Virus record (IMG/VR): IMGVR_UViG_3300033074_000233
Coordinates: 64,001 to 128,000 of that record
Length of the DNA stretch: 64,000 nt
Reading direction: 5' to 3' (one strand)
Origin: a virus
Taxonomy: Duplodnaviria; Caudoviricetes
The notes beneath the pieces were generated by a model. It had not been told where the DNA came from. It made no database searches and saw only the letters and a program-made list of their open reading frames with translations. The position numbers and the translations under genes are program-made. Shown in pieces: positions 6,329-54,699 of the stretch (positions within the stretch are counted from its first letter, which is position 1; each line of letters opens with the position of its first letter).

Positions 6329-7882
6329 TTAAAAGATGCGGCCGCCGTTGCGACTACGAAGGTCGACAACGGTAGAACGGATGTCCGAAACTGCCAGGCT
6401 GGAAGTCTCTTGGGTTTTGCCACCACGACGAAGGCCTGCACCTTCGAGGCGAGCCTCGGTAGGTACGGTCTCGTCCATGTCCACTTCGTCACCAGCATCT
6501 ACTACGGTGGTCGGCTGGTAGTTCATGTCGCCAATCGAAGTCGCAAGTTCATTGCGGAATTCAACGGATTTCGACAGAAGTTCCTGAGCCTTCTCGAACA
6601 GAGACTTGTGATACGGGTCATTGTACTGGGCAAAGACCTTGTCAACTACACGGGAGGCACCTTTGAAACCAGATGCAGCCAGTTCGTTTTTGAAGGCTTC
6701 TTTCAGCACATGTGGTGAACCCTTGAACCATCCTTTGTTCAAACCAGCAGCAACGATGCCAACTGCTTGGCGGAAGTCGTCGCTTACATCCTTAATCTTG
6801 GATGCAATTTCACGCTGCGCTTTTTCGACGCCAGCAGTAACACGCTCATTGACCAACTCCGGAACAGGGAACTTTACAGCAGCCAGTTGGAAATTGTAGT
6901 GAGCAAGTGCCTTTTCTGCGCCTACTTTACGAACAGTGTGCTTGATGGCGTTTGCAAACGCGGTGGTTGCGAATACGCCTTCATTTTGACCCGCATTAGC
7001 GCGAGTCAGGTGACCTACCGGAATGCCGCCTACGAAGGCAACAATACGATCACCATAGCGTTCAATCGACAGGTCACCCTGAACGATTGCCGCAAGACAG
7101 GACTCCTCGAAGTCCACTTCTTCATCTTCACCGACCGCGTCATCTGCATCGTCTTCCGCGCTTTCTGCGGATTCGTCTGCATCTTCACTGTCATCGGCCG
7201 TGGCCAGCATGATTGGTTCAGTAGCCGGCTTCGGCTCCTCAACTGCTACAACAGGTGCATCAGCAGGCTTGACGTTATCGACAGGTGCAGCCGGTGCCTT
7301 AACATCGGTTTCTGCAGCCTTAGGAGCAGCGTCGGTCGCAGCGGCTGCGGCCTCAACTTCTTCCGTTTCGTCTTCTTCGTCATTGATGGTCAGATCAACG
7401 TCGTCCATTTCCTCGTCAGTCAGATCGTCGCCATCGGCAGACAATTCAACATCTTCAAGGTTTTCTTCAACGTCTTCGCCCTCAGTCGGGGGCATGTATT
7501 CGATTTCTGTGCCACAGGTGACACAGTGCATCTTTGTACCCAAGGCAGAGGCAGTTTCGAGAGTTACGATGTTGTGCGTTCCGCAAGAGGAACACTCCAC
7601 ATTCGCAAGATTCTCGTCGTCACCAATGTCCTCAGGAGAAAGAGCACCTTCACCGTCTTCAACGTCAACCTCATCCGAGCCACAAGTGACGCAGAACGGT
7701 TGGCTACCTGCAAGGGCAGAGAATTGCGTAGTGCAACCCTCACACTTAAATGCAGACAGGACCGTATCTTTGTTCACTTCTGGTGCGGCAGCGGCAATAA
7801 CGTAGAAGCCGGCGCCTTTCTCGTCAGAAGCGGCGTTAAGAACGCTCGCCTTGACTAGATGTGCCTTCTTCGCCTTCGCCAT
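6329..7882 (-). CDS. Putative prohead scaffold/core protein with four CxxC motifs
   Basis: CEGC, CVTC, CSSC, CVTC; acidic linker; helical C-half; position upstream of MCP. Confidence 0.6.
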   Translation of the reverse strand: MAKAKKAHLVKASVLNAASDEKGAGFYVIAAAAPEVNKDTVLSAFKCEGCTTQFSALAGSQPFCVTCGSDEVDVEDGEGALSPEDIGDDENLANVECSSCGTHNIVTLETASALGTKMHCVTCGTEIEYMPPTEGEDVEENLEDVELSADGDDLTDEEMDDVDLTINDEEDETEEVEAAAAATDAAPKAAETDVKAPAAPVDNVKPADAPVVAVEEPKPATEPIMLATADDSEDADESAESAEDDADDAVGEDEEVDFEESCLAAIVQGDLSIERYGDRIVAFVGGIPVGHLTRANAGQNEGVFATTAFANAIKHTVRKVGAEKALAHYNFQLAAVKFPVPELVNERVTAGVEKAQREIASKIKDVSDDFRQAVGIVAAGLNKGWFKGSPHVLKEAFKNELAASGFKGASRVVDKVFAQYNDPYHKSLFEKAQELLSKSVEFRNELATSIGDMNYQPTTVVDAGDEVDMDETVPTEARLEGAGLRRGGKTQETSSLAVSDIRSTVVDLRSRNGGRIF

Positions 7883-8274
7883 TTGCGTCTCCGAAGTCCC
7901 AAGTTGTGAAATGTACGCCCTCAGCGACTTTCGCCGTTGTGTGCGTGCAAACTAAAATTAGTATGCACAAGATTAAATTACATTCGAGTGCCTACACAGA
8001 CCTACCGCCGGCCTATAGGACACTATTAAATGGATACCACTAGGATTAAGCCTGAGGCAGTGCGTTAGTCTCTACTTGAACTACAAAGTATCTACTTCCA
8101 TACTCTAAGTTATTGATTTAGATACAATTATCACTCGCCAGGCTATTTAATACCTAAATATGTAAATAGCAGCACTGGGAAGAGTAATGATATGTTCCAG
8201 ACGGTAGTCCTGAAAGGGTACTGCATACCAGTGCCACATTAGACTATTGGCTATACGGACACACGGAGTAACAG

Positions 8275-25609: not shown

Positions 25610-25766
25610 TATTGACCTCGGCTCACTAATTTAATTCATGCTCGATATAATGCGCTACAGAATTAAATTAGAATCTGCGTATGCGGGTTTGCATTCATTC
25701 TTTTCCGATTTTTCCTTCGGTAAAGTCCTGGTTACAATGGCACTTTACAGAATTAGGAGGTAGGCC

Positions 25767-26972
25767 GTGCCGGTCAACTATTCATCCAACCGAACTCTAC
25801 ATGCCCGAAATACCAAATCGGTACCCGTGGCGCAGAAAAGACTTGATCAGGTTGCCGACCTAGCCCAGGAACAATACAATAATGCCTTGTCCGTAAATGG
25901 ATATGATGCGTTGGTGTATGGAAGATTAACTACAGGCCGTCGTTGCACTTGCAGCACTGTATTTAATCACAACACAGAACAAATCCTGGACGAAAAAGGA
26001 AATGCAACTGAGGAACATATTCAGTCTCTCCTCACTGGCAGTGATTTCTCCATTGAGGATTATGCCACAACTGGAAACACGTCCAGTCCGGGTTCCGTAA
26101 TTAAGGGCATGCGTGTAATTACTCCTACAGGTTCTGTGGAGAAGAAAGCACCTTACAAGCCTTCGATTTCGGAAGACGATCCGTTTGCTACCGACATGAA
26201 CTCTGTGCAGACCATTGATGACGCCTTTGCTGAGGTTAATCTTGGATCGGTCTCGGCCAACAAGTGCTCACTCTGCTACGGCAGTGGTTATGTTGGTGGA
26301 TACTCGCTGCATAATGGAAACCGTTTTGTTCTGGACTCCACGTACGCGGATAAAGTCTGCTACGGCTATGCAATCATGCAGGAGCAATACCCTAACCTGT
26401 TTGATATGGCCGATGCTTCTGGCGAGGTTCGTTTCACAGTAACCTTGCCTATTGGCATATTGTCTGTGGATCGGATACAGGTTTGGAATAACAATGTCCC
26501 GGTTAAGGGTGCTGTCGTAAGAATCGGTACCAGTCTCGCTAATTTGATTCCGCTAGATGATGCGACTTTACTGACCTACGCAACTGGTACTCCATGCTTG
26601 ATTGTGGTATCGGAAGCGGATAAGTTTTCGCATCTGGAATTGCAGTTCAATTTGTCCTCGATCCATACCTACATTGAATATCCGAGACTCACCAAAACAG
26701 GTGACCTCAGTGTTCTGGAGGCGATAGACGCGGTACAAATAATCGTGAGTCCTCTTGTCCTGAACGTGCAGCCTTGGGACATCGTTGTTGACAACGTGTT
26801 CAAGAAATCTTGGCGTGTTACCTCAAGCAATTGGTTTAACGATAGAAAAATGAACATACACGGATGGGATTGCCAAGCCCGCTTGGTTCAGCCTTACGAG
26901 GTGTTCGTAAATATGGCAGGCAGATTCAACAATGGTACGCAGTATGTATCAACTAGATTGCCGCGCTTTTAA
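25767..26972 (+). CDS. Putative head-closure/neck structural protein
   Basis: GRRCTC...CSLCYGSGYVGGY motif seen in myovirus neck proteins; AGGAGG RBS; CTAATTT upstream. Confidence 0.55.
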   Translation: MPVNYSSNRTLHARNTKSVPVAQKRLDQVADLAQEQYNNALSVNGYDALVYGRLTTGRRCTCSTVFNHNTEQILDEKGNATEEHIQSLLTGSDFSIEDYATTGNTSSPGSVIKGMRVITPTGSVEKKAPYKPSISEDDPFATDMNSVQTIDDAFAEVNLGSVSANKCSLCYGSGYVGGYSLHNGNRFVLDSTYADKVCYGYAIMQEQYPNLFDMADASGEVRFTVTLPIGILSVDRIQVWNNNVPVKGAVVRIGTSLANLIPLDDATLLTYATGTPCLIVVSEADKFSHLELQFNLSSIHTYIEYPRLTKTGDLSVLEAIDAVQIIVSPLVLNVQPWDIVVDNVFKKSWRVTSSNWFNDRKMNIHGWDCQARLVQPYEVFVNMAGRFNNGTQYVSTRLPRF

Positions 26973-26995: not shown

Positions 26996-27430
26996 ATGGC
27001 TGATGATATTCCGAGTGGTGAGATAGGGACGTTGGTGGACCACTTGTTTACGGGCGGAGCGTCCGATGCAGTAATAGCGATCCTCATGCTTGTTGTTGTG
27101 GCTCTTGGATTTTCAATAGTGCAACTGTACAAACGGTTGCTAGAAGCCGAGAAGGAAAGAGTTGCACAGAATGTGCAGCATCAGGATGACCTGAGGTCTC
27201 TGAATAAGGAATACCAGCAAGTAGTAAAAGACATTACCACTGAGTACAAGGATACGCTCAAACAACTGAACGCAGACAACCAAGCATTTGTAAAAGGCGT
27301 TATAAACGAGAACAATGAAAGTGCCGATGAGATTGCCCGGGCACTACAGTCAGTTCAAGTTACGATTGCCGAAATGAAAGCGGTTGTTTCTTTCACCAGC
27401 GCTCGAGGACAGAAACATGGCACGCCTTAA
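26996..27430 (+). CDS. Single-TM + coiled-coil membrane protein (BhlA/UviB-holin-like architecture)
   Basis: TM AVIAILMLVVVALGFSIV then EKER..coiled coil..IAEMK. Confidence 0.55.
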   Translation: MADDIPSGEIGTLVDHLFTGGASDAVIAILMLVVVALGFSIVQLYKRLLEAEKERVAQNVQHQDDLRSLNKEYQQVVKDITTEYKDTLKQLNADNQAFVKGVINENNESADEIARALQSVQVTIAEMKAVVSFTSARGQKHGTP

Positions 27431-28313
27431 AGTCAGTGACCTTATCAAGTCGGAGAAAGCACCGACTGATAAAACTGGTATGTATATGTCACTCTCTTTG
27501 CCATCAAGAGTCAACCTCAAGAACGTAGCCCGTTCCTTACAGGTTGACGCTGAGGAAATGCGTGAAACCATTAACACCTGGAAACAGGACTCAGCCGTCC
27601 TTAACCAGTTGTGTGAGGTTCTTTCCGACGCCGTTATTCGAGTCGATGGCAATGGCCTAATATTTGAGTTCAACGAAGCGGCATGCGCGTTGTTTCATTC
27701 CACTCCAGCCTATATGCTTGGAAAGAATATCTCGGTCATTCTATATACGGACTGGACATCTTTCCTAGATAACTTCGACGATCACCAATCGTTCGAGCAC
27801 ATGATTACAAGGTTAGACGGTTCTTCGCTGCTGGTTTCTACAGCCTTAACCCGTGTTGGTAGTAATGACGGAGAATACATACTGGTTATTCGTGACATTA
27901 CCCAGCGTGTTAAATCCGAGCAGGATATTCTGATACTGTCGGCCGCATTAAATCAGGCTTCCGACGTTATCATCATTACCAATAGCCTTAACAAAATAAT
28001 CTTCGTCAACAATGCCTTTGTAAAGCACACGGGCTATACAGAACAAGAGGCTATAGGTCAAGACCCAAAGTTCCTGAAGTCAGGTGAGACCCCACGCATT
28101 ACTTATGATGCCATGTGGGGTCTTTTGCGTGAGAAGCGCACTTGGGAAGGTGTAGTGATAAACAAGTGCAAGGACGGTAGGTTAGTTGAGGACTACATGA
28201 TTGTGACTCCTGTCATGAACGGTGATCCAGTAAGACCAGCCTTCTACATTTCCGTTAAGCGGACAGAGTGGTGCAAACCGTATGAAACAGATCAAAGTAA
28301 CCTCAAGGGTTGA
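27417..28313 (+). CDS. Tandem PAS-PAS sensor protein without output domain
   Basis: PAS1 DAVIRVDGNGLIFEFNEAACALF...RLDGS...IRDITQR; PAS2 IIFVNNAFVKHTGY...IGQDPKFLKSG...W....WEG..INKCKDG...TPV. Confidence 0.9.
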   Translation: MARLKVSDLIKSEKAPTDKTGMYMSLSLPSRVNLKNVARSLQVDAEEMRETINTWKQDSAVLNQLCEVLSDAVIRVDGNGLIFEFNEAACALFHSTPAYMLGKNISVILYTDWTSFLDNFDDHQSFEHMITRLDGSSLLVSTALTRVGSNDGEYILVIRDITQRVKSEQDILILSAALNQASDVIIITNSLNKIIFVNNAFVKHTGYTEQEAIGQDPKFLKSGETPRITYDAMWGLLREKRTWEGVVINKCKDGRLVEDYMIVTPVMNGDPVRPAFYISVKRTEWCKPYETDQSNLKG

Positions 28314-28602
28314 GGAAGGCGTTGACACAGACGCCTTGCAAAAGCGTTTGCAGTCTGCTTTCAACAGGTACCGCGCTACGATAACCGTTAAGGATACACG
28401 TTCAGGTATAAACGTGCGTGTTGGCCTTGTACCTAATACTCGCCTTGAACTGTCGCAGATAAAGGAAATGTACACCAAAGTAGATAGAATCATCGACGGC
28501 ACATATTCGGATATTTTCGAGGCGCGTGCCAGCTGGATAGAAACAAATGCTACTAAGGGCCTTGACCTCGTAGTCGATTATGTATTCGAGGGAGAAGGCT
28601 AA
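28282..28602 (+). CDS. Hypothetical protein
   Basis: 106 aa, tiles with neighbours. Confidence 0.6.
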   Translation: MKQIKVTSRVEEGVDTDALQKRLQSAFNRYRATITVKDTRSGINVRVGLVPNTRLELSQIKEMYTKVDRIIDGTYSDIFEARASWIETNATKGLDLVVDYVFEGEG

Positions 28603-28970
28603 TGAAGCGCATTGAACAACAGGTCTTGGCCAGACTAGAAACGGCCGGAGGCTTTAGGTCCCCAGCACAAATGCGTGATCTCAAAATCATCCGCAAGAAG
28701 TTTGGCGTAGTCTATTTCGTCGATCCAAAAGATGCAATGGTATTCGCCAAAGGTAAGGGCTTCAAGGTAATAAACCACGGTGGTGCCGACGCCGAGAATG
28801 GCCAAGATGAAAGTGACATGGAGTTCCTCTATGAGGTCACTGATAAGTCCGGCAACACAGTAGGTCTTATCAGCGGCACAGGCCACGAAGGTGAAGGATA
28901 TATCTGTCCTTCAGCCCAGCATTACAAGAAGTGGGAAGCCTACCAACATTCACAACCGCAACGCTCTTAA
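28602..28970 (+). CDS. MKxIE..RL-leader protein
   Basis: Starts MKRIEQQVLARLETA. Confidence 0.7.
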   Translation: MKRIEQQVLARLETAGGFRSPAQMRDLKIIRKKFGVVYFVDPKDAMVFAKGKGFKVINHGGADAENGQDESDMEFLYEVTDKSGNTVGLISGTGHEGEGYICPSAQHYKKWEAYQHSQPQRS

Positions 28971-28987: not shown

Positions 28988-29335
28988 ATGAAAGAGATAA
29001 CCTTGTCTTACCTGATGAAAATGCTTGCTGTAGCCAAGGCTACAGCGCAGCGCGAAGCCAAGCGTTTGCTTCCTCTTATTGCCCTTTTGGGCATTTTCCT
29101 TTATGTGGACTACGATGGCACCTATGCCATTATCTACATGCTTGGCCTGATGACGTTGATTGCCCTGTTCAGCCACGTTGCACGTCGCCTCATGTTTCCT
29201 TATCTGGACATGAAGGTAATTGCAGATAAGGCCGATGAATCACCTATGAGTTCGGCGATTGTATTTGCCTCTATCGCATTTATCATCGGCTGTTTGATTC
29301 TGACTGTGGGCGGCATGCTGAAAGGCGGAGGCTGA
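28988..29335 (+). CDS. Putative holin (3 TM)
   Basis: Three hydrophobic segments, SHVARRLMFPYLD motif; GGAG RBS; lysis region. Confidence 0.6.
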   Translation: MKEITLSYLMKMLAVAKATAQREAKRLLPLIALLGIFLYVDYDGTYAIIYMLGLMTLIALFSHVARRLMFPYLDMKVIADKADESPMSSAIVFASIAFIIGCLILTVGGMLKGGG

Positions 29336-29336
29336 T

Positions 29337-30530
29337 ATGAAGGCTTTGGCTAGAAAGAAAGCCACAACAGAAGTAGCCTCTGACGGATATAAACCGTGTC
29401 CTGAATGCGGCTCTACTTCCGTAATGCGTGAGCGTTGTCGTGGTTGCAATACTCATTGCAGAGACTGTGGCTATACCTGTTCCAGTGCTCAATGGGATGA
29501 TATTAAAGCCTCAGTTGAGGTTGCTTTCCAGATTCCAGATTGGTTCAAAGAGTTACCCAAAGCAGGTCAGGACAAGTACCTTGAGGAGCATCCGAATTCC
29601 AAGTTGGCCAAGACGTTCAAGGCGAAGCAGAACAAGCCTGCTGATACCTCGAAGTCGCCCACCAACTTCAAAGGTCCAGCAAACAAGAAGACCGCAATGG
29701 GTGATGATCCACGTAAGGAACGCAACATCGTTTCTATGATGGACAAACTCGCCAAGATGGCTGCTGATGCAAAGGCTCAAGGTACTGCTGCACCGAACTA
29801 CGACCTGTGCAAGATTTCTATTCCTGGTACCAACCTGTTCTGCCAAAGCAACAAGGGCATTCCACGCAAGGATATGCCGCAGTTGAAAGGCAAGCCTACG
29901 GCGGGCTCCTGGGCTGATAAGAACCTTGAGAAGGATAAGAACGGTGAAGTAGATGGGGAAGACGCTTTCAAGGCCTTCCTTAAGCAGTCGAACGTGAAAC
30001 TTGACAACAAGCGAATTGACGTTGCCAAGTTGAAGGCCACGCAGACTGAACTGGTTGGTCCTAAAGTTGCTGGCATGCTACAGGCCTTGAAAAAGGACCC
30101 TAAGCATCCAGGTATCACTGCACCGATATTCGTCAGCAAAGACGGCTACATCCTTGATGGTCATCACCGCTGGGCTGCTATGGTTGGCCTGAACATGGCC
30201 GACGGTAAAGTTGATCCAGTAGAAATGGACATCATTGAAGTTGACATGGGCATTGAAGACCTGGTGAAACAGACCAACGACTTTGCCAGCAAGATAGGCG
30301 TAGCACAGAAGGCTGCCAAGACTACGAAAGAAGGCGCGAGTGCGAGATTCTCCTCCGGAGACAAGGTTTACATTTACTGGTTAGCCACGGACAAGTGGGA
30401 AGCGGTCAACTACCGAGGCCCTCTAGGGAGTGATAAGGCTGTAGTAGTGAAAGATGGTATGCAGTTTACTGTAAACGCCGCTGATCTTCGGGATAAACCT
30501 GAGAAGGCTTACACTGGTTGCTGCGGCTGA
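29337..30530 (+). CDS. Multidomain protein: Zn ribbon + HPxSK module + ParB/Srx-like domain
   Basis: CPECG..CRDCG; WFKELPKAGQDKYLEEHPNSK; LKATQ..PIFVSKDGYILDGHHRWAA. Confidence 0.75.
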   Translation: MKALARKKATTEVASDGYKPCPECGSTSVMRERCRGCNTHCRDCGYTCSSAQWDDIKASVEVAFQIPDWFKELPKAGQDKYLEEHPNSKLAKTFKAKQNKPADTSKSPTNFKGPANKKTAMGDDPRKERNIVSMMDKLAKMAADAKAQGTAAPNYDLCKISIPGTNLFCQSNKGIPRKDMPQLKGKPTAGSWADKNLEKDKNGEVDGEDAFKAFLKQSNVKLDNKRIDVAKLKATQTELVGPKVAGMLQALKKDPKHPGITAPIFVSKDGYILDGHHRWAAMVGLNMADGKVDPVEMDIIEVDMGIEDLVKQTNDFASKIGVAQKAAKTTKEGASARFSSGDKVYIYWLATDKWEAVNYRGPLGSDKAVVVKDGMQFTVNAADLRDKPEKAYTGCCG

Positions 30531-30531
30531 G

Positions 30532-31554
30532 GTGATTATGAAACGATTAGTAGTCCTCGCTTTCACGGAAAAGGATTTCCTGATGTGGGATAAAGCAACC
30601 CAACGTCAGTGGATGAAGGATCATCCTGATTCCAAGTTCGGTGAAGCCCTAAAGAAGGCTAAGGGTAAAGGTGCTACTCTCGTTCCAAAGAAGCCTGAGA
30701 AGACTCCAAAACTCAGTCCTGAAGAAAAGAAGGCTGCAGCCGACCGTAAGTTTGCAGAGGACATGAAGTCCAAAGCACCGGAAGATCGCAAGCACTTTGA
30801 AGCGGCTTTGAAGGATAACATCCGTATTCCACCCGCTTGGAACGGTGTTACCTATTTCGGTGCTAGTCCCGAAGACGGTATTATTGCTAAAGGCACAGAC
30901 GAAAAGGGTCGTAGCCAGAGACTGGAACTCGCAGAATACCGTGAGAAAAAGATCGCCGAGAAGCACAAGCGTATTCAGGACGACCTTGAACCTAAGTTTG
31001 ATGACGCTGTAAATAGCCTAAGAGAAAAAGCGGCAAAGGGTTCACCAGAAGCACAGGTCCTGTACGTTATCACACAACTAGGTTTCCGTATTGGTGGCAG
31101 AGGCGACGGTCGAGCCAAGACTAAGGCCTACGGTGCAAGTAACCTAGAAGCACGCCACGTTAAAGTGAAAGGCGATAACGTAGCATTCGATTTCATTGGC
31201 AAAGAGGGTCGTAGGCAGCAACACGCTATCGAAGACCCCGTTATGGCCAAGTTCATTAGGTCCCGCCTGCGTGGTAAGACTAATACGGACAAACTCTTTC
31301 CTACGGACGAGGAAAAGATTCGCAAGGTATGGAAGCCTGTTGGTAGTGAGAAGGTCCATGATATCCGTTCTGTCTTGGCCACACGTATTGCCAAGAAGAT
31401 AGTGGATTCCGCTGACGTACCGAAGACCAAGAAAGAACTGCACACGCTTATGACTACCTGTGCTAAGGCTGCCTCTGAACGTCTTGGCAATAACCCGTCA
31501 GAAGCATTGAACACCTATATTGACGCTCGCGTCTTTCCAGGAGTAGGCGAATGA
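30532..31554 (+). CDS. DNA topoisomerase IB with N-terminal HPxSK module
   Basis: IPPAW, GTDEKGRSQ, GFRIG, YGASNL..RHV, FIGKEG, HDIRS, LGNNP....NTYI (catalytic Tyr). Confidence 0.9.
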   Translation: MIMKRLVVLAFTEKDFLMWDKATQRQWMKDHPDSKFGEALKKAKGKGATLVPKKPEKTPKLSPEEKKAAADRKFAEDMKSKAPEDRKHFEAALKDNIRIPPAWNGVTYFGASPEDGIIAKGTDEKGRSQRLELAEYREKKIAEKHKRIQDDLEPKFDDAVNSLREKAAKGSPEAQVLYVITQLGFRIGGRGDGRAKTKAYGASNLEARHVKVKGDNVAFDFIGKEGRRQQHAIEDPVMAKFIRSRLRGKTNTDKLFPTDEEKIRKVWKPVGSEKVHDIRSVLATRIAKKIVDSADVPKTKKELHTLMTTCAKAASERLGNNPSEALNTYIDARVFPGVGE

Positions 31555-33240: not shown

Positions 33241-34026
33241 ATGGTCAGGAAGAAAATTGAGCCCGACATAGAAAGGAGACCAGTATCCTCTGTCAAAGAT
33301 AAACTGATAGAGGCCTTTCTTCTGGTTACCTTTATTGGGCTAATAGTAACTGTGATACTGTTCCTTACGGTGTCTAACGTCCGTGCCTCAGAATTACCTT
33401 TCATTCCAGATAGAGCCAAGCAGTACCTGCCGAGCGTCATTAAGGCTATTGACGTAATGAAGTTCCCTAAGGAATATCACGAATCAATAGCAGGTCAGAT
33501 AGAACAGGAAACCTGCTACAGTCTCAAGCATAAGAAGTGCTGGAATCCCAACACGGAGTTGAAGACCTCACGTGAATATGGCTTCGGTCTTGGTCAGTTA
33601 ACCATTACGTCCAAGTTCAATGGCTTTCAGGAAGTAACCCAGTACAAAGAACTAAAAGAATGGAAGTGGGAAGATCGCTATAATCCTGAATTGCAGATAC
33701 GTGCCATTCTTCTTAAGGACCGTATTGCCTACAACGCAATTAAATGGCCTGTAGTAAACGAGTACGAAAAACTAGCCATGGCCTATGCAGCCTATAATGG
33801 TGGCGTTGGTGGACTGCTTTCGGATCGTAAACTTACCCAGTTGAACAACGGCGACACAAGTAAATGGTTTGGCGGTATCGAGTTGTACAGCAAGAAGTCC
33901 AAGGTACCTCATCCTGAGTATAAGGTATCCTTCTTCGACATTAACCGTTCCTATCCAAAGAACATCCTAACGGTCAGGATGATGAAGTACAAGCCTTGGA
34001 TGGAGAAAATTCGTGAAACACATTGA
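33241..34026 (+). CDS. Endolysin, soluble lytic transglycosylase with N-terminal hydrophobic segment
   Basis: GQIEQET, EYGFGLGQLT, AYNGG. Confidence 0.85.
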   Translation: MVRKKIEPDIERRPVSSVKDKLIEAFLLVTFIGLIVTVILFLTVSNVRASELPFIPDRAKQYLPSVIKAIDVMKFPKEYHESIAGQIEQETCYSLKHKKCWNPNTELKTSREYGFGLGQLTITSKFNGFQEVTQYKELKEWKWEDRYNPELQIRAILLKDRIAYNAIKWPVVNEYEKLAMAYAAYNGGVGGLLSDRKLTQLNNGDTSKWFGGIELYSKKSKVPHPEYKVSFFDINRSYPKNILTVRMMKYKPWMEKIRETH

Positions 34027-36732: not shown

Positions 36733-37059
36733 ATGAAAGAGTGGGCGATCAAAAATGCTATTCCTATTGCCTGTGTCCTTGTGCTACTACTTGCAGGATA
36801 TTGGGCAATAGGAAAAGTCGATTCCATGCTGGAAACCCGTAACTCCGAATTACGGGGTCAGCTCAAGGCTGATATGGGCGAAGCGCAGGAAGCACTTAAA
36901 ACAGCCGTAGCGGATGCTGAGAAACATATCAAGGAAGCGAAAGCCGCAGAGAACAACGCGAACACTAATGCCGCGAACGGCAAGGGTAAGACTGATGCCG
37001 CAGCGAAAAAGAAACTGGCCGATATGGTCAACGAATGGAACACAGGAGCGACACCATGA
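36733..37059 (+). CDS. i-spanin (Rz-like)
   Basis: N-terminal TM + Ala-rich coiled coil. Confidence 0.6.
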   Translation: MKEWAIKNAIPIACVLVLLLAGYWAIGKVDSMLETRNSELRGQLKADMGEAQEALKTAVADAEKHIKEAKAAENNANTNAANGKGKTDAAAKKKLADMVNEWNTGATP

Positions 37060-37412: not shown

Positions 37413-37904
37413 ATGAGGTATTTACTGCTAGCCTCACTCGTTCTCCTGACAGGCTGCTCTACGTTCCAGTTTCCTAAGTTAGCCGATCCGAGTTTCGATA
37501 CGTCGGACTTACTTGCCAAGCAGCAGCCGTTAGAAGCGTACACCGTACCTGAGCCTGCTACGTTGTCTTCCTATCCAAAGGTCAAGGTAATAGAGGGCCA
37601 GACGAAAGTGTACGCCTGCTTCGAGGAGGAAGGCTTCCGTGACATTGTACGCATTCGTGGCTACAACGAAACGAACGTGCAGGAGGTGAAAGACCTGCAG
37701 GCTGTAATTGACGCGCGTACAAACGTCGCCAATGACTGGCTCAAAGCAGCCCAAGCCTCCGAGAGAGAGGCGAACGGTTTGAAGCAACTGAAGGCCGTAG
37801 ACGCCTCGGATGCAGCAAGAGAAAAACGCGAACTGACCAAAACATTGTGGCGTGATCGCATCATAGGTGCGGCCGCTATTGTCCTACTGATTCTGGCCCC
37901 GTAA
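37413..37904 (+). CDS. Lipoprotein spanin with hydrophobic C-terminus
   Basis: Lipobox LLTGC; coiled coil; C-terminal IIGAAAIVLLILAP. Confidence 0.7.
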   Translation: MRYLLLASLVLLTGCSTFQFPKLADPSFDTSDLLAKQQPLEAYTVPEPATLSSYPKVKVIEGQTKVYACFEEEGFRDIVRIRGYNETNVQEVKDLQAVIDARTNVANDWLKAAQASEREANGLKQLKAVDASDAAREKRELTKTLWRDRIIGAAAIVLLILAP

Positions 37905-52029: not shown

Positions 52030-52095
52030 TTTCTCCCGTGCGCGTATTTGGAGAGTGGCCTGAACACCCACTCTCCTTCTTTTCACGAGGTACAC

Positions 52096-54699
52096 ATGGC
52101 AATTAAGAAAGGTAAGGACGTAAAAGAGAAGAAGGTCAAGAAGACCAAGGAAAAGCCAGAGAAGAAAGGCAAGAAGGCGAAAGCCGAGAAAGAACCCAAG
52201 GTCAAGAAAGGCAAGAAAGGCCGAGTGATTGATGGTGACACTGGCGAGGTCCTGGATGACGATGACGGCATTGCGCTTCGTGCTCACGCTGCGTCCGAAG
52301 ACATGGATGCGATGCTTGACGCAATCGAGAAGGACGTTGGTATTGTTGCCGTTACCGCAGGTAGTCGTAACACAACCAGCACTGGCCTGCTTTCGCTTGA
52401 CCTGATGCTTTGTGGTGGCCTTGTCTCTGGTGGCTGGTATACCTTCTTCGGCGGTGAGCAATCGTCTAAGTCCACGCTGGCGATGACACAGATCGCACGT
52501 GCGGCTATGCAAGGCAAGATTCCGATCCTGTTGTACTTCGACTTCGAGGGTTCACTCTCCGAGTCGCTGGACTACATGCTGAGTATTGCACGGGCACAAG
52601 GTTTCAAGGGTAACTTGCAAGACCTCTTTGGCATTCAAGACCCGAAGACGGGCAAGTACGTCAAGAAGCCGTTGATTCGTCGGTATCAGGAAAGCGTTGC
52701 CGAGCGTTTCTTCGACCTCGTTGCCAAGCTGGAGCGTAGTCTGCCGGACAAACTCTATCGCAACGAAAAGTGGTGGTACGTTTACGAACATACCAAGGTC
52801 AATATCTCCAAGTACAGCGCCATCTCGGATAAGCAGTTGTACAAGCAGACTGGCAAACTCTGGGTTGAGACTGACAACGGCCACCCACAGGCTATGATAG
52901 TGGTTGACTCCTATCCGGCAATGCTTCCAGAGCGTCTGGATGAGGATGATGCTGGTGCGGGTATGGCTGCACAGGCCCGTATGTTCTCGGACAACATTAA
53001 GCGCGTCAAAGGCAAAATGTCGTCCAAGCGCATTGTAATCATGGGCGTGAACCAGTTGCGTAAAGCACCTATGGTTAAGTACGGCTGTCTACACGGAGAT
53101 ACCCAGATTCCGTTCGTAGATGGTACGTCGCACAGCATTAAGTCTATCGTGGAGCAAAAGATTGAAGGTGAGGTCTGGTCTCTAAACGAGGACACGGACA
53201 AGATAGAGCCTGCAAAGATTACAGGCTGGTTTAACAACGGAGAGGTAGACAAAAAATCGGACTGGATTACGATTACTACCACTAACGTAGTAGAGACACC
53301 CAATGGTGTTGCCTCTGTTACGGTTACGCCTGACCACAAAATCCTTACCCGACGTGGATGGAAAGCCGCGCGTAAGTTGAAAGTTGGCGATAAAGTCCTG
53401 AGTAAGTACGCATCTATCTACGAGGGAGAAATGCGCTCGGTGCTTGCTGGTGTCCTAGCTGGGGACTCTTGTATTGTTGGTGATTGCAGGAATAGTCACC
53501 TTAGACTTCAAGACTCGCAGAATGCCGAGTACGTTGCTTGGAAGCGCGACCTGTTGAAGGACGTTCTATCCTTCAACTTGCGCGGAACTAAGAAGCAAAC
53601 TTGGATTTCCAACAGGTATTACCAGTTGTCCAAGTTGAAAGAAAAACTCGGAGAGCGTGACCCAACTAAGTTCGCTAACGTGTTTGATGCCCGCAGCCTT
53701 GCTATTTTCTACATGGATGACGGTCATTTCAGGTCTGAGAGGAACACAAGTAGTATTTGTATCGGTCGTTTTAAAGGTAAAGAAAAACTTGAGCAGGTAG
53801 CAGAAATGTTGTCTGAAAAGTTCTGTGTGTCTCCAGTAGTTCGCGGCAAAAACCTTATGTTTTCTGCCGAGGATACGCGAGTTATGCACAGTCTAATTGC
53901 CAAGTATGTGCCAGAGCCTATGCAGTACAAACTTCTTCCTGAGTACAGGGGCAAGTATAAGGCGCATAAACTCAAGGCAAAAATCTCTACCAAGAACATC
54001 TGGTGTGAGATAAGTTCCATAGACAAAGGCTCAGACAGGAAGTTCAGGTCTAGGACGAAATACGACATTGAAGTGGCTAGCCATAGTAACTATATGGCGG
54101 GTAACGTAGCCAACGGATTCATTGTCCATAATTCGCCGGAATATGAGCCCGGAGGGGAGGCTGTCAAGTTCTTCTCGGACGTTCGTATCCGTATGGCCTC
54201 GCGTTCAGTTCTGGGTGGCACAGGTCAGATCGAGGAAGAACCGTCAGTAGAGAAACCGGGTGGCAAGGACGTGTACCGTTACGTCAACATGCGCGCAGCC
54301 AAGAACAAGTTGTCTGTACCGAACCTTGAAGGCTGGGCCCGTATCTGGGTGCGTGATGCCTACGGTAAAGCGCGTGGCTACGATCCGGTGTTCGATACCT
54401 TCACCTTCCTCAAGGAACTGAAACTGATTTCGGGTACCAAGAAAAACCTCGTTATCAAGTTGAAGGAGTTTGAAGGCAGCAAAGGCCTGACGTGGGCACA
54501 GTTCAAGATGCTGTGCATTGGCGAAAAGAAAATGGTGTTGCAGGTATTCAAGGACGCCAAGATCAAAGCCAAGCCGTTCAAACTGCGTGAGCGCCTGTTC
54601 AAGATGGTGTCTACGGGTAAGGCGACTGAGACCTACTTTGCTGCGCTTGCTGATGGCAGTGGCAAAGACAAGGACGATGAGGCACCGAGCGATGAATGA
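52096..54699 (+). CDS. recA: RecA/UvsX-like recombinase with intein
   Basis: STGLLSLD..L.GG, GGEQSSKST, DFEG, VVDS, QARMFS, NQLR, PGGEAVKFFSDVR, KNK. Confidence 0.92.
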   Translation: MAIKKGKDVKEKKVKKTKEKPEKKGKKAKAEKEPKVKKGKKGRVIDGDTGEVLDDDDGIALRAHAASEDMDAMLDAIEKDVGIVAVTAGSRNTTSTGLLSLDLMLCGGLVSGGWYTFFGGEQSSKSTLAMTQIARAAMQGKIPILLYFDFEGSLSESLDYMLSIARAQGFKGNLQDLFGIQDPKTGKYVKKPLIRRYQESVAERFFDLVAKLERSLPDKLYRNEKWWYVYEHTKVNISKYSAISDKQLYKQTGKLWVETDNGHPQAMIVVDSYPAMLPERLDEDDAGAGMAAQARMFSDNIKRVKGKMSSKRIVIMGVNQLRKAPMVKYGCLHGDTQIPFVDGTSHSIKSIVEQKIEGEVWSLNEDTDKIEPAKITGWFNNGEVDKKSDWITITTTNVVETPNGVASVTVTPDHKILTRRGWKAARKLKVGDKVLSKYASIYEGEMRSVLAGVLAGDSCIVGDCRNSHLRLQDSQNAEYVAWKRDLLKDVLSFNLRGTKKQTWISNRYYQLSKLKEKLGERDPTKFANVFDARSLAIFYMDDGHFRSERNTSSICIGRFKGKEKLEQVAEMLSEKFCVSPVVRGKNLMFSAEDTRVMHSLIAKYVPEPMQYKLLPEYRGKYKAHKLKAKISTKNIWCEISSIDKGSDRKFRSRTKYDIEVASHSNYMAGNVANGFIVHNSPEYEPGGEAVKFFSDVRIRMASRSVLGGTGQIEEEPSVEKPGGKDVYRYVNMRAAKNKLSVPNLEGWARIWVRDAYGKARGYDPVFDTFTFLKELKLISGTKKNLVIKLKEFEGSKGLTWAQFKMLCIGEKKMVLQVFKDAKIKAKPFKLRERLFKMVSTGKATETYFAALADGSGKDKDDEAPSDE
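53086..54132 (+). mobile_element. Intein with LAGLIDADG endonuclease (349 aa) in RecA loop L2
   Basis: KYG|CLHGDT...TPDH...IVHN|SPE; LAGVLAGD, FYMDDG. Confidence 0.92.

Follow-up and report, generated by a model that had tools for sequence, protein, structure and literature searches.

How can a virus benefit from a sensory protein that possesses no recognizable output domain? This question is raised by a gene for a stand-alone protein of 298 amino acids (aa), composed essentially of two PAS domains, which we analysed in a window of 64,000 nucleotides (the whole stretch of DNA under study) corresponding to bases 64001-128000 of the 215,992-bp IMG/VR virus record IMGVR_UViG_3300033074_000233. 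The record is approximately 84% complete, and the source virus is an uncultured jumbo phage. The PAS gene overlaps by 14 bp an upstream gene for a 144-aa protein with a single transmembrane (TM) segment and a coiled coil (Table 1). An earlier note, made from the sequence alone, correctly described this overlap, regarded the membrane protein as holin-like, placed the pair in a late or lysis region, and suggested either a redox- or oxygen-responsive control of lysis timing or a decoy that interferes with PAS proteins of the host. Here we report that the PAS-PAS protein is a phage-specific, conserved variant of a known sensor type, whose second PAS domain (PAS2) belongs, by fold and by residue signature, to the type that binds flavin adenine dinucleotide (FAD) in NifL and MmoS. 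The linkage of the PAS/TM module to lysis, on the other hand, is plausible but positional.

The 298-aa protein comprises a variable N-terminal region with a long helix (residues 1-68), PAS1 (residues ~70-160), PAS2 (~168-281) and a tail of 16 residues. The ATG at 27417 is the start common to all homologues in the family alignment, and a GAGGA is located 7 nt upstream of it. Comparison with Pfam revealed PF00989 (E-value 7e-22, 78 bits against a cut-off of 22.6, in two stretches) and PF13426 (1.3e-18, 67.6 bits, cut-off 27), and both PAS domains were also picked up in a genome-wide scan. Searches of Pfam, NCBIfam, PHROGs and PADLOC revealed no kinase, GGDEF, helix-turn-helix (HTH) or other family, which bears out the description of a short N-terminal helical region followed by two PAS domains with no output. 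In particular, neither HisKA nor HATPase_c is matched and only 16 residues remain after PAS2, hence the protein is not a histidine kinase. The AlphaFold model (mean predicted local distance difference test score, pLDDT, of 69) is better defined in the PAS cores (74-88) and of low confidence in the N-terminal helix (residues 34-68); it exhibits two PAS folds, each with a five-stranded antiparallel sheet and flanking helices, for which Foldseek reports matches to DosP, MmoS, PpsR and NifL. An HTH in the N-terminal 57 residues was considered and rejected, as no such family is matched and a single long helix is seen both in the model and in a distant clade.

A word-indexed search identified 13 metagenomic relatives of 285-333 aa, all of which consist of PAS-PAS only and none of which is named, and an exhaustive profile search added four stand-alone members (283-319 aa) amid many multi-PAS kinases. 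The same length and architecture are retained in at least 18 full-length relatives, down to ~30% identity, and members of the family are located on contigs of 170 kb and 49 kb. In the C-terminal part of the gene the ratio of nonsynonymous to synonymous polymorphism (pN/pS) is 0.05 with respect to L002, a near-identical contig of 1.15 kb from the JGI metagenomes, the scan of which otherwise returned one unrelated weak PAS match. A pattern scan of 185,579 species genomes in GTDB found no member of the family, and 50,697 records of cultured phages contain no full-length relative, the only matches being Aer/MCP-type inserts in P1 and SJ46 and short Listeria records. In IMG/VR, scans with the single protein, with the alignment A1, and with P0045, P0055 and P0080 found no relative, while the 18-sequence alignment found a 114-kb phage contig (L010); a scan with the PAS protein of L010 returned L010 alone. 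PAS domains annotated in other viruses include those in histidine kinases of the Agrobacterium jumbo phage Atu_ph07 and in short stand-alone PAS proteins of uncultured phages; our literature searches returned no report of a phage flavin-type PAS sensor.

These data bear on the possibility, raised already in the earlier note, of a truncated host gene in decay, in this case what is left of a sensor kinase. Such an origin would account for the absence of output domains; however, decay is at odds with the constant length and architecture of the at least 18 relatives and with the low pN/pS, the position of the gene is kept in two diverged phage genomes (see below), and its G+C content (0.46) is close to that of the neighbouring stretches (0.46-0.48). 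The probability of such an origin is negligible: the PAS gene is an intact gene of the phage that evolves under purifying selection.

Across the family, conservation is highest in PAS2, with identities to the window protein of 38-97%, compared to 8-86% in the N-terminal 57 residues. PAS2 contains the motif VNNAFVKHTGYTEQEAIGQDPKFLKSGETPRITYDAMW, which the earlier note had quoted as the mark of NifL/Aer-like flavin domains. That assignment is corroborated by a profile of 14 members, for which the best relatives in the PDB are MmoS (3EWK, 1.8e-32) and PAS1 of NifL (2GJ3, 8e-23), with Aer and the LOV domains at 1e-9 to 1e-16, and by the superposition of the modelled PAS2 on 2gj3_B in Foldseek (TM-score 0.86, root mean square deviation 1.7 A over 111 columns, 34% identity). 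The protein is not an equivalog of NifL, since it scores 75.2 bits against TIGR02938 (cut-off 242.45), with the match restricted to model positions 6-113.

The alignment between PAS2 and NifL is gapless, hence the FAD contacts of NifL, at the positions of Thr41, Tyr83, Trp87, Leu90, Asn102, Arg80, Glu70 and Ala45 (PMC8063818), can be mapped onto 18 members of the phage family. The Trp residue of helix F-alpha has been described as the primary determinant of FAD binding, and its combination with the Asn residue as the signature of the NifL/MmoS cluster, "cluster 4" (PMC10468136). All 18 members possess the Trp (NifL Trp87, W234 in the window protein), the Asn that contacts the isoalloxazine ring (Asn102, N249) and the Tyr (Tyr83, Y230); likewise, the position of Thr41 is invariably Thr or Ser and that of Leu90 Leu or Met. 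Some of the remaining contacts speak against a simple extrapolation from NifL. Arg80, which contacts the phosphate, is kept in just four of the 18 members, and all of them have Pro in place of Glu70 and Asn in place of Ala45, which leaves room for another ligand or a different chemistry of signalling. It could even be argued from these two invariant substitutions, and from the loss of Arg80 in 14 of the 18 sequences, that PAS2 holds no flavin at all, or holds some other small molecule, and that the protein is a ligand sensor or a plain dimeric adaptor; PAS-B of MmoS, which also has Pro at the position of Glu70, aligns well with PAS2. MmoS PAS-B is not known to carry a cofactor. However, that domain lacks the Tyr and the Trp that are invariant in the phage family, while Trp together with Asn is the published FAD signature (PMC10468136) and occurs here in the domain that the family conserves best. 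We consider the flavin-free alternative unlikely and, judging from the residue pattern, believe that PAS2 probably binds flavin.

The position that is occupied by the photoactive Cys in LOV domains, and by a His in Aer, corresponds to Pro217, which is Pro in all 18 members. This excludes the LOV photocycle, and it also implies that the relay of the signal from the flavin N5 must differ from that in NifL. One could still envisage a sensor of blue light that operates in a cysteine-less LOV mode, by photoreduction of the flavin, given that LOV domains are found among the PDB matches and that the motif G-x-[DN]-P-x-F-x-x-S-G in the phage family parallels the GxNCRFLQG of LOV proteins. Yet, apart from the replacement of the adduct-forming Cys, the relatives of known structure that come closest are NifL and MmoS, and the F-alpha Trp marks FAD redox sensors (PMC10468136), which makes photoreception very improbable. 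As far as residue patterns can tell, the redox reading of the sensor is well founded.

PAS1 gave only generic PAS matches, its identity across the family ranges from 13 to 92%, and neither a His nor a Cys is conserved in it. For lack of these residues and of any specific match, we rejected the idea that PAS1 holds heme or some other cofactor; this domain probably serves in dimerisation or as a transducer.

The linkage between the PAS gene and the TM gene is conserved: the two share contigs in eight assemblies. Homologues of the 144-aa protein (51-97% identity) and of the PAS protein are found on contigs of exactly the same size (6303, 13633 and 170373 bp), and cluster look-ups revealed contigs of 5239 and 9749 bp that carry the TM, PAS and 106-aa proteins together; the last is encoded immediately downstream, in a gene that overlaps the PAS gene. 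Homologues of the PAS and 106-aa proteins further share contigs of 2541 and 4156 bp. L010 is the only distant relative with readable neighbourhood DNA, and it exhibits the same order as the window, namely RuvC (on the minus strand), the 401-aa protein encoded upstream of the pair, the TM protein and the PAS-PAS protein, with identities of 44, 42, 36 and 44%, respectively (the TM homologue, at 7563-7934, is matched with an E-value of 3e-26). The pair has thus diverged in step with the backbone genes between the two phages, which argues for vertical inheritance. The 106-aa protein accompanies the pair in the close clade only, with homologues of 59-95% identity on the same contigs as the PAS homologues and pN/pS of 0.08 with respect to L002. 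No homologue was detected in L010, and the constant core accordingly consists of the TM protein and the PAS-PAS protein, a pair that is very likely functional. The 106-aa protein itself has no family in Pfam, PHROGs or NCBIfam, no Atlas match and no fold match reaching an E-value of 0.28 (model pLDDT 55). Its homologue on the 170,373-bp metagenomic contig (P0179) is 186 aa long, due to an 80-residue C-terminal extension that has no counterpart in other members.

The pattern of divergence is also relevant to the decoy function proposed in the earlier note, in which the protein would act as a dominant negative by heterodimerising with PAS sensor kinases of the host. PAS domains dimerise, and a PAS protein devoid of output could in principle poison the dimers of the host. 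Yet the best cellular relatives share 27-45% identity over 31-54% of the protein, and divergence in step with the phage backbone is a poor fit to the mimicry of one host protein. Moreover, the likely interfaces, PAS1 and the N-terminus, evolve fastest, and the conserved partner is a membrane protein of the phage, which a decoy would not need. We regard this hypothesis as unsupported and improbable.

A single strong TM segment spans residues 26-44 of the 144-aa protein (Kyte-Doolittle 2.81); an acidic N-tail of 24 aa (0-1 basic and 4-5 acidic residues) precedes it, and an invariant KR and a coiled coil of ~95 aa follow. In the alignment A2 (seven sequences, 51-97% identity), conservation is highest in three places: the N-tail, with a motif that ends in FTGxASDAV, the KR right after the TM segment, and the C-terminal helix ALxSVQ..IAE.K. 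According to the positive-inside rule, the acidic N-tail and the KR favour an N-out/C-in topology, which would place the coiled coil in the cytoplasm, within reach of a cytoplasmic PAS dimer. The reverse topology, as in the T4 holin T, would instead expose the conserved N-tail to the cytoplasm. The C-terminal part gave only matches of the coiled-coil type. For the protein as a whole, the matches are limited to weak ones to Rz-like proteins, SieB and the tail of ZorA, its Atlas look-alikes are unnamed viral proteins, and no relatives were found in cultured phages. The protein is small, with one TM segment and a charged, coiled-coil C-terminus, which are generic traits of holins but not specific to them. 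The identity of an i-spanin was considered and rejected: the matches to Rz-like PHROGs are weak (1.7e-3, and 3e-5 for the L010 homologue), there is no embedded or adjacent lipoprotein reading frame, L010 possesses a homologue in addition to a separate spanin pair, and the acidic N-tail and the KR point to a cytoplasmic rather than a periplasmic coiled coil.

What, then, would such a pair control? The sensor and the membrane partner may together modulate a late membrane event, most plausibly permeabilisation or the timing of lysis; we advance this composite interpretation tentatively, as possible rather than probable. In L010, the TM gene, the PAS gene and a gene for a 102-aa protein are directly followed by an i-spanin-like gene (TM segment and coiled coil, weak Rz-like match at 3.5e-4) and an overlapping o-spanin-like gene, coding for an 89-aa lipoprotein with an LPGC lipobox. 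In the window, the picture is less clear. The 3-TM holin that the earlier note placed about 0.7 kb downstream is indeed encoded 675 bp after the stop of the PAS gene, but it has two or three TM segments, its match to a holin family is weak, and no relatives of this 115-aa protein were found in cultured phages. The statement that SLT and spanin genes follow is only loosely true, of SLT-like and spanin-like genes on the same strand, the first of them ~4 kb beyond the holin candidate; the 261-aa transglycosylase-like protein has no Pfam SLT match and no sequence match in the PDB, and the domains that Pfam does assign to SLT are encoded in other parts of the genome.

Several observations weigh against the lysis connection. 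In the window, 5-9 kb with genes for ParB-like, topoisomerase IB and basic proteins lie between the module and the SLT-like and spanin-like genes; the spanin candidates found here are unrelated in sequence to those of L010, and the link as a whole is positional and based on two genomes. No holin or antiholin family was found for the 144-aa protein in Pfam, PHROGs or NCBIfam, only coiled-coil matches at the level of composition, so that the label "holin-like" receives no support from homology; moreover, its weak Rz-like matches would suggest the reversed topology. The genome also encodes a second membrane-anchored lytic transglycosylase of 221 aa (G000:C1:145288-145953; L006 1192-1857) with an N-terminal TM segment and a coiled coil, in which Pfam recognizes an SLT domain (4.2e-11); together with a 113-aa TM protein two genes downstream, it forms a possible alternative lysis locus. 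Finally, the module is flanked in the window by DNA-metabolism genes on one side and by the ParB/topoisomerase IB block on the other. The "late/lysis region" of the earlier note is therefore an overstatement for the window, even though the pair of L010 does lie near spanins.

These same observations leave room for a flavin-based redox pair that controls some other membrane or late function, such as superinfection exclusion, DNA ejection or packaged proteins, or the protection of the energised membrane. The genes immediately downstream in the window code not for lysis enzymes, but for small basic proteins that share a leader, the ParB-like protein and topoisomerase IB, and the 144-aa protein shows a weak match to SieB (PF14163, 1.1e-3). 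On the other hand, this match is below the cut-off and covers the TM segment and coiled coil only, and the next recognizable genes in L010 are spanins. Such a function seems rather unlikely to us.

Returning to the modulation of permeabilisation or lysis, we envisage the following scenario. The module is a vertically inherited two-gene unit of an uncultured jumbo-phage clade, in which a translationally coupled pair of genes codes for the small single-pass membrane protein and the cytoplasmic PAS-PAS protein. By extrapolation from the NifL, MmoS and Aer families, the PAS-PAS protein would dimerise via its N-terminal helices, PAS2 would hold a flavin, most likely non-covalent FAD, as do NifL PAS1 and MmoS PAS-A, and changes in the redox state of the flavin would shift the conformation of the protein, tracking the respiratory or NADH (reduced nicotinamide adenine dinucleotide) status of the host. 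In the absence of an enzymatic or DNA-binding output, signalling must go through protein-protein contact, and the gene linkage points to the 144-aa membrane protein as the most likely partner, to be contacted via its coiled coil if this is cytoplasmic or, in the reverse topology, via the conserved N-tail. The controlled event, to judge from the neighbourhood only, may be membrane permeabilisation or the timing of lysis. It is tantalizing to go one step further and to consider the 144-aa protein as a new single-pass protein of the holin or antiholin type, onto which the flavin sensor docks, so that the respiratory or energy state of the infected cell decides when the host lyses; this more specific version is doubtful, but, if true, it would represent a counterpart of T4 lysis inhibition that operates inside the cell and by means of a cofactor. 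Thus, of the redox- or oxygen-responsive control of lysis timing suggested originally, the sensory half agrees with the flavin-type PAS2, whereas the lysis half is supported weakly, by the gene order as seen in L010.

Comparison with known systems places the phage protein closest to NifL PAS1 (2GJ3) and MmoS PAS-A/PAS-B (3EWK), with which it shares the fold, the Trp on helix F-alpha, the Asn and the Tyr that contact the isoalloxazine ring in those proteins, and the tandem arrangement of PAS domains. NifL exerts its output by protein-protein contact, and the same is expected for the phage protein. In contrast to NifL and MmoS, however, the phage protein has no H/GHKL or kinase part, the order of its domains is reversed, with the cofactor-type PAS being the second, its gene is paired with that for a membrane protein, and the FAD contacts differ in the Pro for Glu70, the Asn for Ala45 and the mostly lost Arg80. 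The aerotaxis and energy receptor Aer of E. coli (8DIK; PMC9668731) is an inner-membrane FAD-PAS protein that reads the respiratory or redox state and signals by contact with a helical, membrane-proximal module, and by analogy the same logic may apply to the proposed two-piece complex of the phage. Nonetheless, Aer combines a membrane hairpin, HAMP and a kinase-control module in one polypeptide, while the anchor in the phage would be a separate 1-TM protein with no HAMP or MCP; the two also differ in the His of Aer, replaced by Pro in the phage family. Short effector-less LOV/PAS proteins, such as the "sensory box" proteins of Pseudomonas (3SW1, 7R5N), resemble the phage protein in being stand-alone PAS proteins of the flavin type with only flanking helices, but they contain a single PAS domain with a photoactive Cys and flavin mononucleotide, as opposed to two PAS domains, the FAD-type Trp and no Cys.

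Among the systems that control phage lysis, T4 lysis inhibition (PMC11413866) presents a similar arrangement to the one proposed here, as a single-pass membrane protein, the holin T, is set by small soluble or anchored partners, the antiholins RI and RIII, that act on a signal. The T4 proteins and the phage pair are unrelated in sequence, T4 responds to superinfection, which is sensed in the periplasm, rather than to a cytoplasmic cofactor, and the role of the 144-aa protein as a holin is putative. VqmA of the vibriophage VP882 (PMC8284805) is likewise a phage-encoded PAS receptor that reads a small-molecule cue for a lysis decision; it differs in its DNA-binding output, its ligand (the autoinducer DPO) and its place in the lysis-lysogeny switch of a temperate phage, while the window protein has no HTH and a flavin-type pocket. 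How virulent phages time lysis by host physiology is understood in very few systems, chiefly T4 lysis inhibition, and an output-less flavin-type sensor whose gene stands next to that of a membrane protein of the phage and is passed on together with the backbone represents a concrete candidate for a link between the state of the host and lysis. If this is true, the virus may read the energy state of its host and perhaps time the bursting of the cell accordingly. The module also offers, to the puzzle of how effector-less PAS and LOV proteins act, a case with an obvious candidate partner, and if the connection to lysis fails, it still constitutes a new phage-specific family of NifL/MmoS-type PAS domains.

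Table 1. Features of the module and of its surroundings in the window
Feature	Position	Strand	Basis
401-aa protein, head of the operon, function not assigned	25767-26972	+	phrog_21298 1.9e-20; tblastn; 42% identity to L010 6354-7547
144-aa single-TM coiled-coil protein	26996-27430	+	hydropathy, alignment A2
298-aa stand-alone PAS-PAS protein	27417-28313	+	Pfam, NCBIfam, AlphaFold model, family alignments
PAS1	27588-27911	+	generic PAS matches only (3bwl E 4.5e-4, FixL N-terminal half)
PAS2, NifL/MmoS-type putative FAD-binding domain	27912-28262	+	profile against PDB, Foldseek, TIGR02938, contact residues
106-aa soluble protein	28282-28602	+	overlaps PAS gene by 32 bp
122-aa protein with MKRIE-type N-terminal leader common to several downstream genes	28602-28970	+	sequence; longer homologue after 106-aa gene in L002
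115-aa weak holin candidate, 2-3 TM segments (hydrophobicity strong in two, weaker in one)	28988-29335	+	phrog_8226 "holin" E 1e-3, whole length
ParB-like protein with zinc ribbon	29337-30530	+	
Topoisomerase IB-like protein	30532-31554	+	
261-aa protein with N-terminal TM segment and lytic-transglycosylase-like region	33241-34026	+	phrog_669 "endolysin" 9.9e-21; MltF 1.9e-4
108-aa TM and coiled-coil protein, weak i-spanin or holin-type candidate	36733-37059	+	phrog_89 Rz-like spanin E 0.0089
163-aa lipoprotein, lipobox LLTGC, C-terminal TM segment, i.e. unimolecular-spanin architecture (T1 gp11 type)	37413-37904	+	phrog_23384 "lipoprotein" 3.9e-11

The module is a part of a tightly packed operon on the plus strand, which begins at 25767, after a divergent intergenic region of 157 bp, and continues in the order 401-aa, 144-aa, 298-aa PAS-PAS, 106-aa, 122-aa, 115-aa, ParB-like, topoisomerase IB-like and more genes; the gap between the 401-aa and 144-aa genes amounts to 23 nt. 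The window further encodes topoisomerase II subunits, a RuvC-like resolvase, SSB, a UvsX-like recombinase with a LAGLIDADG insert, SbcC and ribonucleotide reductase. A DNA similarity search found no relative among cultured phages. At the protein level, tblastn with the 401-aa backbone gene gave matches in at least 57 phage records, including ORF115 of phiRSL1 and gp095 of BcepSauron; its nearest cultured relatives, at ~30% identity or less, are those of phiRSL1, BcepSauron, Motura and other jumbo phages of Proteobacteria. phiRSL1 and BcepSauron have differing neighbour genes and are too distant for a comparison of synteny. The 401-aa protein contains Cys-rich motifs and has relatives also in PaBG, Lu11 and in Erwinia and Pseudomonas jumbo phages, all listed records being annotated as "hypothetical protein".

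Scans of the region for sigma-70-type promoters and for terminators gave results at the background level. The divergent region (25610-25766) contains a perfect 12-nt inverted repeat (25626-25637 and 25660-25671) that flanks a TATAAT. The word CACTTTACAG directly precedes the 401-aa gene and is found at the same place in L010 (6309-6318). Words similar to TTTACAGAAT occur at the intergenic sites 13502, 25653, 25743, 40785, 40803 and 50048, with seven found compared to 2.2 expected. Between 28602 and 39764, several otherwise unrelated, mostly basic proteins begin with MK(H/R)IE..(V/A)..R(L/I), at 28602, 32238, 34013, 37056 and 38652. Finally, the UvsX-like recombinase (883 aa, 52048-54699, plus strand) carries an internal LAGLIDADG homing-endonuclease segment in residues 462-629, which is probably an intein.

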